This document shows, piece by piece, positions 3,002-63,742 of a DNA stretch of 64,000 nt (position 1 is its first letter; the number at the start of each line of letters is the position of its first letter). A program made the translations under genes and the position numbers. This DNA comes from Octopus vulgaris (taxonomy: Eukaryota): NCBI GenBank assembly GCA_951406725.2, contig OX597814.1, forward strand, positions 118,482,001-118,546,000. The letters are read 5' to 3'. The notes under the pieces are model-generated. The model was given only the letters and a program-made list of their open reading frames with translations. It ran no database searches and was not told the DNA's origin.

Positions 3002-4159
3002 TTGTTTAATTTGAAACATCCTTTATCATTGTTTAAAAAGATCATTCTAGTTGAGAAAAGAATGCTGTTTCAAACTGAGACAGCGATGCAAGTGATAACG
3101 TTGGGGACAACATATTTTTGCATCTCTGATATATTTTCATTTACGTGCTATACAAAGTAGACCGTGTATTATATGCAAAGACAAAGATATGAAACGATTC
3201 GTATTATCAAAGTTAAGAATCTCAGTTTCTTTGTTCATGATAAATAGTCACGTATTTTATAACCACCTGCTTTAAGTTATCCGCTATTCATAAATGCCTA
3301 TGACAATTCAGTCTCTGAATATCATAACAAGCAGATTCTTCTATACATTTAATTGGATCTCGTGTTACGTATCAAGCCATAAATTTCATTTTTATTCTCT
3401 TTTTAATAATTAATGACATTACATACCAAATATAGATGCACAACTATAAAATCTCCATCCTCAGTATATAAAAATTTTAATATACATCATATCTAAATCT
3501 ATCTATCTATATAATAAAATGTTTATATAGAAAAATGGAGGTGGAAATAGTACAGAAGTAAATCTAAGGCAATTCAATTTGGAAACAATTTAATAAAATA
3601 ATTTTAAAATTATATATAGAAAATATGGAATATTACCTGTTTCAATGAGTAATCTCATCTGATCAAATATAATAAAATGTTATAAAAGTCTGAAGTCTGA
3701 ACATTTTATCTTCTACTTGGAGTTCAAAAATATGTATGGGATCTTTTCATTGAAACCTTTAAATATGGAGTTTAAGGTATTAGAGAGGAGGTATAGTTGT
3801 CTATTATCCGTAAAGAACTTTATTGAATAATCTTTATGTCCACCTGTGTGTGAGTGTGTGTGTTTGCGTGTGTGTGTGAGTGTGTGTGTGAGTGTGTGTG
3901 TATTGTGCTGAATGTCCTTTCAAATATATATGGACACATCTTCTGGGACATCCTCCTCAAACCCTTCCTGAAACATATACTGAGTTACATACGAGACGAT
4001 CTAGACATGCTAAAGCCTTGCCATAAACAGTAAATAAACATATAAATAAACGAATGGCGGTTCCCCAGCATGGCCATAGCTCGTGAGCTGAAACTAGATA
4101 AAATATAAAATATAATATAAAATAAAATATACAACTTTTACTTCGTTTATGTTGTGAAA

Positions 4160-4960
4160 CTATACAGCAACACTGGAATAACTGCAATCCAATACTAGTT
4201 AGATACTCATCAATATGAAATTTCCAACAGGCATTGAAAATATAATTTATCATTGATGGGCAAAGATTTATACCTGAAAGCAACTTTTTACTTTCAACGG
4301 TTCGGATGGCTGCCAAACATCAGAAACAGTGATGAGTATGAAAGTAACCTCCATATACGCCAGTATAGTCATGGGATTCCACGAACAAAATATATACAAC
4401 CAATCTCTTTTAATATTCCGTAACACGTTCCATACACAACTCTGAAAGAATTGGAAAAGTTAACTGGATGATTGCTTTATCTGACGGCAGAAAGACATTG
4501 ACAAGCTAAGTGAATTTAAAAACATGTCAAACAACGTCAGAAATAACATCCAATTTGCAATGGAATTTAATCCCCAAAACTGACTTTTCTGGATATCCTA
4601 ATCACAAACCAAGATGGCAAAATAGAAACGGGCATATTCTACAAACCCACTGAATCTATCCAGTACCCTCTTTTTACATCATGTCACCTGAAACACACCA
4701 AACTCAATATTTCCTTCTATCTGTCAAAACAAATTTGCCCCATGTTATCAGAAGTATCAAAACATGAACTGTAGGACGCATTTATTCAAAAAAACCTTTC
4801 CCCCTGGCATTAACATCAACGGAATAAACAAGGCGAAGTAAATAGATACCAATGAACTGAGGAAAACAAAAAAAGAAGAAAAAAAGGTAAATGTCTTACC
4901 GTTCATGTCAACCTTCAATCGCCAGAAACACTGAAATATTTGATCACATCCATAAAGACC
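4160..4960 (+). mobile_element. Degenerate Penelope-like element reverse transcriptase fragment
   Basis: Broken frames translate to SNFF.TFNG...VMSMKVTSIYASIVMGFHE, WKS*LDDCFI and FLDILITNQDGKIETGIFYKPTESIQYPLFTSCHLKHTKLNI, matching PLE RT motifs and the thumb. Confidence 0.85.
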
Positions 4961-5791: not shown

Positions 5792-6738
5792 GTATATATT
5801 TATATAAGTGTGTGTGTGCATGTATGTATTATGTATGTAGGAAGTTAGGTAAGTATGGAGGTAGGTAGTTAGGAAAGTGGGTAGACAGGTAGGTAGGTAG
5901 GTAGGTAGGGAGATAGGTAGGATAGGGTTAGGTGGGTAAATAGGTCGGTATACTTACATACATTCAGAGGGATAGAAAGTAAGTGAAATATAGAGAAATA
6001 CGTTTGCATCAATTTCTATATACGACTTATATCTTCGTATTTCCGTTAGTTTTAACAGGTCGCCCCAGTTGGTTTCATTTTTATCAAGCAAATGCGCGCT
6101 TCTTGTCCGTTTACGCATGTTAAAGCATTTCAGTCGCACCCAGTAAACCATATATTTAATTTTCTCAATGCGAGAATCAAACTAACATTACGTGCGATAG
6201 TTTATTGCAGTAATGCAGCTTAACATTTATTTGTGGTTAACGGGAAGGCGGAAAATGCAGAAAAACTCGAAAGAAAAAAAGATATCATCATCTGATTGCA
6301 TATAATCAGAGTTGTTTTTAATACGGTGTTCTCTTGTCGTTTATTAAACTGTAGTTACACGTATTTGTGTCAGATATGTCAGATGGAAATATGTAACAGA
6401 TCAAGGATATTAAACATGAAACAATAGGCAATATTGATTTCTAGTGTTAAACAAGTAAATTGGCGAACAGAAGTGCAAAAGTGAATGACTAAGACAGATA
6501 GAGGGAGGGGGAAAGAGAGATGAAGGGAGAGAGATGATGAGTGAGAGAGCGACCACGCAGATATGATAAATGATTCTCGTTCTTCGGAATTCAAATTCCG
6601 AAGAACGAGAATCATTAGTGTCGGAACAAGTGTATCATAAAAGCTTGTACTTTTGAAAATGCTTCATATTATTCATTAACCAAAAAATCTATAAAAAAAA
6701 ATAGGAAAACTAAATGTTGAATACTGCATGATATCTAG

Positions 6739-6954
6739 CTCTTTTACTCTTTTACTCTTTTACTTGTTTCAGTCATTTGACTGTGGCCATGATGGAGCAC
6801 CGCCTTGAGTCGAGGAAATCGACACCAGGACTTATTCTTTGTAAGTCTAGTACTTATTCTATTGGGCTCGTTTGCCGAACCGCTAGGTTACGGGGACGTA
6901 ATAACACCAGCATCGGTTTTCAAGTGATGTTGGGGTGGGGGACAAACACAAACA

Positions 6955-7027
<73 letters not shown>

Positions 7028-7180
7028 GACGGGATTCTTTCAGTTTCGGTCTACCAGATCCACTTTGGTCAGCCCAAGGCTGTAGTAGAAAACACTTGCC
7101 CTAGGTGCAACGCAGTGGTACTGAAACCGGAACTATGTGGTTCGTAATCAAGCTACTTACCGCACTGTCACTCCTACGCT
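6739..7180 (-). mobile_element. tRNA-derived SINE (family A, internal (TA)n/(TG)n tract, (GTAAAAGA)n tail)
   Basis: Reverse complement of the family A copy at 30630-31027. Confidence 0.9.
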
Positions 7181-8559
7181 TATAATTATATAGCTGTTAC
7201 TTATTTTTTCGTTTTATTGCTTGGAAGGGAAAAACTGTTTCTTATAAGACAATAAAGTGATGCAAAGTATCAAATGCTCAAAGGAGAGAGGTGTATACTA
7301 AATATAGACAAAACTAAACGATTAACTTCATGAATAGAAACAGTCATGGCGATTGTTCTCCACGCTATAGCCCGCTAACGATTGAGAATGATAACTTTGT
7401 AGTTGAACTGAGATTGTGTGTGAAAATACACACAATTATTGCAGTGGAATGAAACTTGAAGTATAGCAGATAAATAGGTTTCTACTATGTTTCTCGTAGG
7501 TATAATATTTTTCAATATTAGACACGTGAGTTCAAATCCAACCGAGTACGGTTTTTGCCTCTCGTTGTTTTAGAGACGAAATCTCTTTTTGTCTCTCATG
7601 ATATTTACCTTTAGATACATACGTGATATATGCGTAGAAAATTTGGTACCTTATTCTGGATGATATTTTGTGGTGGAAAACGGTAGTCAAAGAAAGTGGC
7701 TTTGATGCCGCAGTCAGTGAAAAAGATATTCTCTTTATTATAACACTTACAGAATTAGTGCTTTGCTGACAACATTTCCATAAGCAATACAAAACTTGCT
7801 ACGTATTCAAATATGCTGTATTCATAACATCCTTTTTCTAGGGACCAACATGTTTGTTATTTAGTCGCAAGCACTGATACAAATACCCTTCAAACACACA
7901 TTATGACCTCATTACTAAAGGAATCATAGGAGAATGAAATCTAGCGTTTGTTTGTAAAAGACTTACTATTGATCTCAAAGAGGAAGTGATGTTTCTTAAT
8001 AAAGCATTCTCTTTCGTGATAAAACAATGCAGGTGATAATCATTTTATTTCATGCATTAAAGTATTTTAGTGCTAAAATCAAGGGCCAGTTTTGATCCAT
8101 ATGACATAATATGAAATTTGTTCCTAATATTTTTGTGTATCCATACTTGCATTCTCCAATGTGCCCATTGTTTCCAAAACGCCGAAGTGTGATTTAATGA
8201 ATTTGCTGCCTAAATAAGTCATGCGGACAGGTAAAGCCTTCACTTTATCATAATGACTTCTCAATATTCCATATTCCCACATTTGCGACATAAATTATCC
8301 TAAAGATGAGATCTTCTAACTGTAGTTGAATGATTAACCTTTATAAGAAGAAAAGCTATTTTCTTGATATCTAGGATTCTAAGGAAATTTTAAATGTCAA
8401 TATCAACAATATAAGCTGTGGATTACAGAGATTTTATGCCATAACTAAGAACAGCTAGAATTAGCAGCAACGGGTTCAACAAAACACAATAATGTTCTAT
8501 GCCTCTGCCCAAAGATTTATGACAGACTAACTGTAGACAAAAACTTCGCTACGGGCTAG

Positions 8560-16032: not shown

Positions 16033-16378
16033 TTGTATTTCGACAAGAATTCTTTCGTCACACTCTTTGACCTCATCAGTGGTCCTTTGCTTTCTTCCGA
16101 TCTGCCATTTTGTATTCCTAATGTATGAGTCTTTATTTTAACTTCTATGTTGTCGAGCGAGCCTCCGTGCTCCTGCTTGGCCTGCTGGTATAGAACCGAT
16201 GAGCTCTTCTCTTCCTTAAGTTCTCTCCAATGCTCATTTACCCGCTCTCCTATGCTCCGTGTTATTTCCCCTACATACGGTGTTGTCTTGTTACTTCATC
16301 GTCCATCAATACATCTTATATTGTATGTAGATTTTAGCCCACAGACAAACTGTAAAGCTAGGAATGTAGTATATAGTG
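16031..16378 (-). mobile_element. 5'-truncated, 5'-inverted PLE fragment (same family as 40380-41960) with hammerhead motif at 16041-16083
   Basis: The minus strand encodes GIY-YIG TPYVGEITRSIGERVNEHW. 16322-16378 is the adjacent upstream segment in opposite orientation. The 3' end matches 41850-41960. Confidence 0.88.
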
Positions 16379-62192: not shown

Positions 62193-62237
<45 letters not shown>

Positions 62238-62266
62238 GAGAAAAAAAGCAACAAGAATGGATTAGT

Positions 62267-62357
62267 TTTTAGTACAATTGTTTCATACAAAGACAGGTTT
62301 TATTAAAAGTTGCAAATATTGCAGCAGATAAAAGTGTCCCGTACTCATCAGCTAAAA
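62267..62357 (-). ncRNA. Type I hammerhead ribozyme with extended stem II
   Basis: TTTTAG CTGATGA GTACGGGACA...TGTCTTTGTAT GAAA C AATT G TA CTAAAA: intact core, 6-bp stem I, GUA cleavage triplet, palindromic stem III. Confidence 0.82.
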
Positions 62358-62729
62358 TACATATGAGTTCTCCAAACATCTTAGTGGGTGAGGCTACACT
62401 CATGAAGTATTGGAGATAATTTCATTAAAAGCAGATTCAGGTTGTAAACAGACTTCCAAAGTTCTTTAATGATGATGCACAGTCTTATCACAGGTTTTAA
62501 AAAGCTTATTAGTTTCACAGAGAAGTTTAATCCATCCATAGTGTAGGTGTAAATTTCCAGAGATATGAGGAGGTATTTCATACTCACAGACGATGAATTT
62601 ATCCATGGTTAATCCACAATGAGGTGGGTATAATTTCATGCTATATTATAAGGTATTTGCCACATTACTGTTCTCTTCACAAAACTGCTATGTTATGACT
62701 TCTAAAGGGTGAAGGAATTTTGTGGAGCA

Positions 62730-62880
62730 AAGAAAAGAAAAGGAAAGATAGGAGAAGAAAAAAGAAAAGAAAGAAAAAAGAAGAAGAAAAAAAGAAAAAA
62801 AGAAAAAAGAGAAGAAAAAAAAAGAAAATAAGAAAAAAGAAGAAAGAAGATAGAAAAAAGAAAAGAAAAAGAAAAAAACG
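62730..62880. repeat. Polypurine (A/G) tract
   Basis: About 150 bp of nearly pure A/G; source of the spurious K/R- and F-rich ORFs. Confidence 0.9.
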
Positions 62881-63322
62881 CCCACATAGAGTATACTGTG
62901 ACAACTGAGATGGGAAAGGGTCGCAGGTAACCCTCTACACAGAAAAAAAGTCTCTTAAATATGGAGACGGTCAGGCTGGCTAAAAATTTGCAGGAATCTA
63001 AGAACTATAAGGAGAATATTATTTTTGACCAGTAAACAGCTATTAATTGCCAAACTGACGTAGCTAAAGCAGATATGAGAATCTAAAGAGAGAACAGGGT
63101 AAGGGATTGAGGGGTCAAAGGCTATCATTAAAGGGAAATACATTAAGTGAAAATAAGTGCAATACTAGAAAGAGGTCATTTAATTTAATTTATTTATTAC
63201 TGTTACTGCATTATATTGTTGATATTACTATCTATACATTGACAGACTATAGGTTTATACTTAGAAGTCAGTTTACAAGGTGTGAGGGAATTGCTTATTA
63301 TATTGAAATTTCTTATACTACG

Positions 63323-63503
63323 ATATATATATATATCAATATATGTATATATATATATATGTATATAAATATATATATGTATATATATATATATATATAT
63401 ATGTATATGTATATATATATATGTATATATATACATGTATATATATATATATATATCAATATATGTATATATATGTATATATATGTATATATATATGTAT
63501 ATA

Positions 63504-63555
<52 letters not shown>

Positions 63556-63669
63556 AATATATGTATATATATACATATATATGTATATATATATATGTGT
63601 GTGTATATATATATATGTATATATATGTATATATATATATGTATATATATATGTATATATATATGTATT

Positions 63670-63742
<73 letters not shown>
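63323..63742. repeat. Long imperfect (TA)n/(TATG) microsatellite; representative of dozens in the window
   Basis: Direct reading of the sequence. Confidence 0.97.

Follow-up and report, generated by a model that had tools for sequence, protein, structure and literature searches.

The window analysed here, 64,000 nucleotides of the Octopus vulgaris genome (contig OX597814.1 of assembly GCA_951406725.2, positions 118,482,001 to 118,546,000), very probably contains, on its minus strand, a hammerhead ribozyme in the 3′ UTR of a 5′-truncated, dead-on-arrival copy of an autonomous Hydra-clade Penelope-like retrotransposon. The copy is inserted in (TA)n, and self-cleavage is predicted after a GUA triplet. 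A first-pass annotation of the window had recognised the hammerhead and had put forward the 1.1 kb around it as a candidate novel retrozyme-like or non-autonomous Penelope-like family. All coordinates are window positions unless a locus (L) or chromosome (C) is named.

The hammerhead module and its conservation

The layout of a type I hammerhead was read on the minus strand at 62267-62357, and all the elements named in the first-pass annotation (CTGATGA, GAAA, GUA, and stems I and III) were confirmed in the sequence. The 6-bp stem I pairs TTTTAG (62357-62352) with CTAAAA (62272-62267). The core box CUGAUGA (C3-A9) is at 62345-62351 and the GAA box at 62284-62282, GAAA occupying 62284-62281. 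Stem III is the palindrome ACAATTGT at 62281-62274. In the GUA triplet, H17 is the A at 62273, which places the predicted cut between 62273 and 62272. The copy has the bases of the hammerhead core throughout: C3 U4 G5 A6 N7 G8 A9, G12 A13 A14, A15.1-U16.1 and an H17 that is not G. The 10.1-11.1 pair is G-U, not G-C, in the window copy, as it is throughout the copies sampled from its family.

The whole window gave zero matches to Rfam at gathering thresholds, and a search of 1801 bases at E<=10 gave no hammerhead match; the sub-threshold mir-297-like rows of this 1.8-kb search correspond to (TA)n and (CA)n repeats. When 141 bases were searched, Hammerhead_1 (RF00163) aligned end to end (model positions 1-45 of 45) with exactly 62267-62357 on the minus strand, stem II accounting for a 54-nt insertion. 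Its 19.4 bits (E = 0.017) fall below the gathering score of 34. Our own hammerhead scanner, whose criteria are the core boxes and three stems, found 68 sites in 381,756 bases (window plus loci) and 0 in the reversed sequences. The corresponding figures for a 159,776-base subset not chosen for this family were 5 sites, 0 reversed and 0-1 per shuffle (10 local shuffles). Among sequencing runs recorded as RNA, none contained the stretch. Contigs assembled from runs that were guessed to be RNA variously span the cleavage site or stop at different places, and such contigs carry no RNA-end information. Judged by its sequence, the window motif is a type I hammerhead, close to canonical and of the kind found in Penelope-like elements, whose stem II is unusually long and whose self-cleavage is putative.

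The earlier observation that the hammerhead has an extended stem II and closes the 3′ end of a repeat inserted in (TA)n was supported. Stem II occupies 60 nt (62285-62344, minus strand) and, when folded alone, formed a closed hairpin in four of four lineages. Two of the three stacked helices originally proposed for it stood up to comparison between lineages: the basal helix, which consists of G10.1-U11.1 and nine further pairs with one bulge, and the apical hairpin of 5-7 bp with a 3-nt loop both covary, and a near-invariant A-rich strand adjoins the latter. The third, the AU-rich middle helix TTTTAT/ATAAAA, did not. It was paired in 76.9% of cells, a value reached by all 500 shuffles, it showed no covariation, and the support for an alternative register was no better. 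On the 3′ strand of this unsupported middle part, position 62298 (minus strand) is A in the window copy and G in all 31 aligned family copies.

The fold energy of the 101-nt stretch around the motif is not beyond that of shuffled sequences (z = -0.30, with 69 of 200 shuffles folding equally well). The monomer hammerhead fold of the 91-nt RNA from the window lies 2.5 kcal/mol above the minimum-energy fold, and across the lineages folded the full monomer hammerhead fold is 2.5-5 kcal/mol over the minimum.

Stem conservation and covariation among copies had been put forward as a check on the motif. An alignment was made of 13 lineages, all from one genome and each represented by a single copy. 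Stems I, II (base and tip) and III were paired in 90.9% of cells, against 31-50% when the partners were slid, and compensatory changes on both sides were seen in 10 of 27 pairs, which 0 of 500 shuffles reached; in both figures the structure was read from the same related sequences, and related sequences may beat shuffles without structure. The 8-nt palindrome ACAAUUGU of stem III was paired in 100% of cells, and at its pair 97-100 ten lineages have A-U, two G-C and one G-U. The core is near-invariant: only 3 of 143 core cells departed from the column majority, compared with 113 of 676 cells where columns are paired and 81 of 390 in the remainder. CUGANGA is kept in 12 of the 13 lineages and the full core in 10, the remaining three being single copies with one core substitution each (G8, G12 and G12). 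The 10.1-11.1 pair is more variable, with A-U in four lineages, G-U in four, G-C in two (those of L045 and L123) and an unpaired U/U in three.

The L045-type module is homologous to that in the window (~73% identity). The L045-type family, with 1900 first-look candidates, represents the 3′ end of a different element belonging to the same clade. A 160-aa probe from its reverse transcriptase (RT) region gave 7914 first-look candidates with identities of 54-100%; 3′ regions were taken from 20 of these and the module was present in 15. Where the G-C relative and the window copy differ at 11.1 and in stem III, every change is of the CpG-decay type, so these changes speak less strongly for selection than do the non-CpG ones in stem I, in the basal helix and in the apical hairpin. 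Within the window copy's own family (31 aligned copies), the hammerhead showed 38 differences in 2821 cells, 31 of which are the private window base at 62298, and the 363 nt upstream of it showed 399 differences in 11153 cells. As far as sequence comparison can tell, the hammerhead motif is no chance match.

The 1.1-kb unit and its parent element

The unit that carries the motif (62237-63321, minus strand) corresponds to the last ~1.09 kb of a ~1.6-kb 3′ UTR and is 95.6% identical over 1088 columns to L118rc 6428-7502. It has the short form of the 3′ end described below, without the optional tail. Between the hammerhead and the insertion end is a 30-nt stretch (62237-62266, minus strand) with a motif, TTCTTGTTGC, that sequence comparison showed to be conserved across lineages. 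Tandem Repeats Finder identified (TA)22 at the 3′ end of the insertion (62193-62236) and a long imperfect (TA)n at its truncated 5′ end (63323-63742), both part of the target microsatellite. It also identified an internal microsatellite of the 3′ UTR at 62729-62878, pyrimidine-rich on the minus strand (purine-rich on the plus strand), which is the most variable part among copies, with mean pairwise identities of 0.69-0.74 in its bins.

A 478-base probe from the 3′ half of the unit was used to search the 2.8-Gb genome. There are at least some 2000 family candidates (2103 at first look); 40 of them were scored and gave 44 matches, the full-length ones having 95-100% identity. The 3′ end is common to all the copies and the 5′ limits of the alignments are variable. 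Thirteen of 29 sampled loci continue upstream past the equivalent of 63321 and into an endonuclease reading frame. At L006 a GIY-YIG-like endonuclease frame ends 345 nt upstream of this point, and in L118rc a 672-aa RT-endonuclease frame ends at 6041. Ten sampled copies of the exact subfamily have 5′ ends at 542, 651, 701, 701, 1060, 1521, 1560, 2113, 2316 and 2467 on a 4750-nt full-length relative; none is full length and eight distinct positions are represented. The common 5′ end of L118 and L119 had suggested a fixed-length non-autonomous derivative, which was ruled out when eight more copies were found to differ. The element's ORF is absent from the window copy and from the sequence beyond its upstream (TA)n.

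The position 63321 is thus only the truncation point of the window copy, so the unit is a 5′-truncated insertion that holds the distal 3′ UTR alone, and the earlier description of it as a discrete 1.1-kb element bounded by (TA)n was not borne out. The earlier remark that no RT or endonuclease was recognisable is correct for the window copy, but only on account of its truncation. A search for tandem arrangement, which had also been proposed, was negative: the window has a single copy of the unit, the genomic copies are dispersed, and no tandem arrays were seen in the window or among the matches. On the sequence comparisons, the unit is a broken-off tail fragment of an autonomous Penelope-like element, and an ordinary copy among the very many of this repeat.

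An autonomous partner had likewise been suggested as something to look for, and full-length relatives were found by walking upstream from copies of the related L045-type family. Intact relatives at L121 and L122 have frames of 980 and 984 aa, respectively, encoding an RT together with a GIY-YIG endonuclease at the C terminus. More generally, RT-endonuclease frames of 941-984 aa are found in relatives that carry the same hammerhead and whose 3′ UTR is 72-90% identical, and many relatives with 54-58% identity to the 160-aa RT probe have open frames of 750-984 aa. An approach to the partner by way of Pfam GIY-YIG matches (148 in all) was abandoned, as these were mostly another element type, with a 781-aa frame, that does not share the 3′ module. 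The module is absent from this 781-aa type and from three further endonuclease groups, even with 3 kb more of downstream sequence.

The 980-aa protein (P0002) contains RWK, DKT in place of DKG, a linker CxCX5C, and CxxC and CxH around conserved E and N. In the parts of Craig et al. 2021 (PMC8557442) consulted, RWK, DKT, CxCX5C, CxxC and CxH are given as features of the Hydra clade, along with (TA)n insertion and mollusc hosts. The RT blocks FDI..., MGS.DSAE... and YRDD agree, by eye, with those rows of the Hydra-clade alignment in the supplement of that paper with which they were compared, including an Octopus bimaculoides family. For the CCHH motif, which GIY-YIG cores of the Hydra clade are expected to lack, the observation is again by eye: P0002 appears to be without a CxxC between the GIY and YIG strands, and the genome's other element type has one. 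Pfam matches were weak or absent. GIY-YIG scored 20.1 bits on the 672-aa protein (P0001), below the cut-off of 22.6, RVT_1 matched neither P0001 nor the 980-aa protein, and the 980-aa protein and two relatives gave zero families at E<=0.01; these results fit the clade's stated divergence. A database search returned nine relatives at E<=1e-5, 35-45% identical over most of the query apart from one at 68% over 38% of it. The named ones are cephalopod, mis-named gene models. Two models that hold the element ORF (P0005 and P0007) are called 'GATA zinc finger domain-containing protein 14-like' and 'putative ankyrin repeat protein', names that are likely to be mis-annotations arising from the asparagine-rich linker and fusion to a host gene. 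Judged by its motifs and by the RT blocks compared by eye, the parent is a Hydra-clade Penelope-like element.

Several other hammerheads and elements were encountered. Within the window, a hammerhead-like site at 16038-16100 (minus strand) has CTGATGA, a 4-bp stem II preceded by an extra G, GAAA and the palindrome AGAATTCT, and lies ~20 nt upstream of (TA)n. Its stem I pairs only after a 2-nt offset, so that it fails the scanner, and Rfam gave nothing there at gathering. Also in the window, 3941-4759 (plus strand) has a weak RT-like match to the protein of the 781-aa element (29% over 303 residues, E = 1e-19) and is probably an old copy of another retroelement. The 781-aa element itself is a different, very abundant Penelope-like element, seen at L043, L048 and 19 further loci, with an intact frame (Pfam RVT_1 and GIY-YIG) and a ~1.1-kb 3′ UTR of ~60-nt tandem repeats with TGACGTCA-like cores, ending in (TA)n; neither Rfam at E<=1 nor our scanner found a hammerhead in its last 1.5 kb. 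Elsewhere in the genome, type I hammerheads of 108 nt, in which stem II measures ~75 nt and stem III is ACGATCGT, occur at L032 (C7:15930010), L033 (C1:98507175) and L036 (C15:53489332). They are above the Rfam threshold (34.2-35.6 bits) and have no RT or endonuclease within 1.5 kb. A long stem II with a short palindromic stem III was also seen at L018 2282-2361(-), L044 45-123(+), L031 1065-1146(-), L040 626-690(-), L048 2961-3015(-) and L098 2395-2453(-), in modules that are mutually unrelated in sequence except for the L018/L044 pair. Within 1.5 kb of these other long-stem-II families no RT or endonuclease was found, except for the 781-aa type beside three of them. Finally, three copies of the window family on one strand at C2:206284669, 206293172 and 206301648 (L008, L011 and L007), two of them with the same truncation point, are spaced by ~8.5 kb; this looks like a segmental tandem duplication carrying the insertion.

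Insertion ends, alternative readings and proposed mechanism

In L122 the hammerhead is present at 2089 and again at 6739, with the ATG at 2377, so that the element has a pseudo-LTR, and in full-length relatives the second hammerhead is ~290 nt upstream of the ATG. A tandem transcript of such an element would therefore hold two hammerheads ~4.65 kb apart. At L121 an inverted truncated copy is found upstream. Among 37 3′ ends in 29 loci, 23 are long, with ~115 nt more, 13 are short and run into (TA)n, and one is neither. In the short form, that of the window copy included, (TA)n begins 30 nt after the cleavage site. The extra ~115 bases of the long form are the first bases of the 5′ UTR of the next unit, and seven of eight head-to-head pairs combine a long end with a short one. 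Hallmarks of Penelope-like elements are present: (TA)n insertion, a pseudo-LTR (pLTR) with the hammerhead inside it, inverted 5′-truncated copies and an optional tail at one end. Elements with only 55-58% identity in the C-terminal region of the RT nevertheless share a conserved 3′ module in its entirety: the hammerhead, the 30 nt that follow it and a further ~115 nt.

An alternative is that the module serves mainly as a platform for RT binding and priming, hammerhead cleavage having been lost or become negligible in this lineage, a reading that we regard as unlikely. In its favour, the module has persisted between elements with RTs that far apart, the 10.1-11.1 pair has drifted from G-C to G-U, A-U and U/U, and in the PAc element of Anolis carolinensis, the one Penelope-like element tested in vitro, hammerhead mutants had no effect on insertion and RNA-seq gave no read with an end at the cleavage site (Frangieh et al. 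2024, PMC11167929). Clades that proliferate without canonical hammerheads are also described in the consulted parts of Craig et al. 2021 (PMC8557442). Against this, the core is kept some eight to ten times better than the helices and loops, and there are compensatory changes in stems I and III that are relevant only to the hammerhead fold. Moreover, G10.1-U11.1 is found in published canonical Hydra-clade rows, Penelope-13_HM and Penelope-17_HM, among those compared from PMC8557442.

The reading of the first-pass annotation, a discrete 1.1-kb non-coding family bounded by (TA)n, draws on the window copy's want of coding capacity, the (TA)n on both its flanks, the 12 of 29 alignments that stop exactly at 63321 and the single 5′ end (position 701) shared by the longer copies L118 and L119. 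It is nevertheless very unlikely, since 63321 is simply the end of the query, the 13 loci mentioned above run on into the endonuclease frame, the 10 copies begin at eight different positions, and neither the window nor the matches hold a tandem array, whereas non-LTR retrozymes are tandemly organised small units (PMC7229834 and the preprint of Li, Clavereau and Pollet 2026, in the portions consulted). That the motif is a chance look-alike in AT-rich repeat DNA might be argued from its Rfam score and from a fold energy no better than that of shuffles. The scanner's 68 real sites against none in reversed sequence speak otherwise, as do the homologous module in 13 lineages and its position, which is where Penelope-like elements carry their hammerhead; covariation and core conservation rule chance out for practical purposes.

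The reading preferred here, a hammerhead in a truncated copy of a Hydra-clade Penelope-like element, leads to the following proposal. As a palindromic stem III of 8 nt is too short for a monomer fold to be held, the ribozyme is likely to act as a dimer or with the help of the element's protein. There are precedents for both: short-stem-III hammerheads of Penelope-like elements act as dimers, according to the sections of Cervera and de la Pena 2014 (PMC4209133) consulted, and the hammerhead studied by Frangieh et al. 2024 (PMC11167929) was protein-assisted and was not required for insertion in vitro. From tandem transcripts, cleavage would set free RNA of unit length, and RNA left uncleaved would be the template for insertion. 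The two forms of 3′ end may reflect two internal start sites of reverse transcription, by analogy with another Penelope-like element in vitro, whose tail was traced to two such sites (Frangieh et al. 2024, PMC11167929). Stem II, long and conserved, may double with the sequence after it as a recognition site for the RT.

A bolder form of this last idea is that the 54-nt insertion in helix II is an RT docking site built into the ribozyme, and that the element's protein gates the choice between cut RNA, as the unit-length message, and uncut RNA, as the template for target-primed reverse transcription with its start site 30 nt downstream. This is a speculation that we consider rather improbable. 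If it were true, this Hydra-clade radiation would be a natural protein-gated hammerhead fused to a retrotransposition signal.

Relation to known systems and significance

In the literature searched on hammerhead ribozymes in octopus, the account of the Hydra clade by Craig, Yushenova, Rodriguez and Arkhipova (2021, PMC8557442), which includes Hydra-1_Obim from Octopus bimaculoides, was alone relevant. In the parts of it consulted, the clade has in common with the present element RWK, DKT, CxCX5C, CxxC and CxH, (TA)n targets, molluscan hosts, and, close to the 3′ end, a type I hammerhead whose near-palindromic stem III is of 4 bp. The same parts give the published families as generally <3 kb (2507 bp for Hydra-1_Obim), whereas the relatives found here are ~4.75 kb and, unlike the families described there, have an ORF of 980 aa, a long linker rich in asparagine and a 3′ UTR of ~1.6 kb. 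Stem II is 3-7 bp with loops of 4-8 nt in seven Hydra-clade rows compared from File S2 of that paper, against 60 nt here.

The survey by Cervera and de la Pena 2014 (PMC4209133), in its sections drawn on here, likewise describes hammerheads in flanking repeats with a 6-bp helix I and a short palindromic helix III that implies a dimer, and families that covary within one genome. There, helix II is of 4 bp (canonical) or 7-8 bp (minimal) and far shorter than in our module, G10.1-C11.1 is highly conserved and an extra base stands between 9 and 10.1; here the pair is G-U and the extra base is absent. PAc, an element of the Poseidon type from Anolis carolinensis (PMC11167929), shares the tandem or pseudo-LTR arrangement, the hammerhead near the pLTR-ORF junction, AT-rich targets and two alternative insertion ends that bound an optional tail. 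It belongs to a different clade, its ORF begins inside the hammerhead, whereas ~290 nt separate hammerhead and ATG here, and its tail is 30-40 bp, compared with an optional stretch of ~115 nt that in our case is read from genomic ends. Animal non-LTR retrozymes (PMC7229834; Li, Clavereau and Pollet 2026, preprint) have in common, in the portions consulted, a type I hammerhead, a short stem III and a proposed link to Penelope-like elements; as described in PMC7229834 they are tandem, small and non-autonomous, whereas the window feature is a dispersed, 5′-truncated piece of a coding element. No description of the long-helix-II variant was found in the literature searched, which includes a part of the supplement of PMC8557442. 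The element, then, is a member of a published clade with a hammerhead of a published kind, and differs in the size of the element and, above all, in the conserved long helix II.

An apparently novel ribozyme-bearing element can now be classified as a truncated Hydra-clade Penelope-like copy. The clade has radiated strongly in the Octopus vulgaris genome, to judge from the number of first-look candidates given by the 160-aa RT probe. All sampled lineages have a long-helix-II hammerhead of a kind that Rfam misses; annotation by Rfam or classical descriptors will under-count such ribozymes. The series G-C, G-U, A-U and U/U at 10.1-11.1 offers ready-made variants for gauging the weight of that pair in vivo, and the clear division of 3′ ends into two forms is natural material on which the model of internal initiation in Penelope-like elements can be examined.
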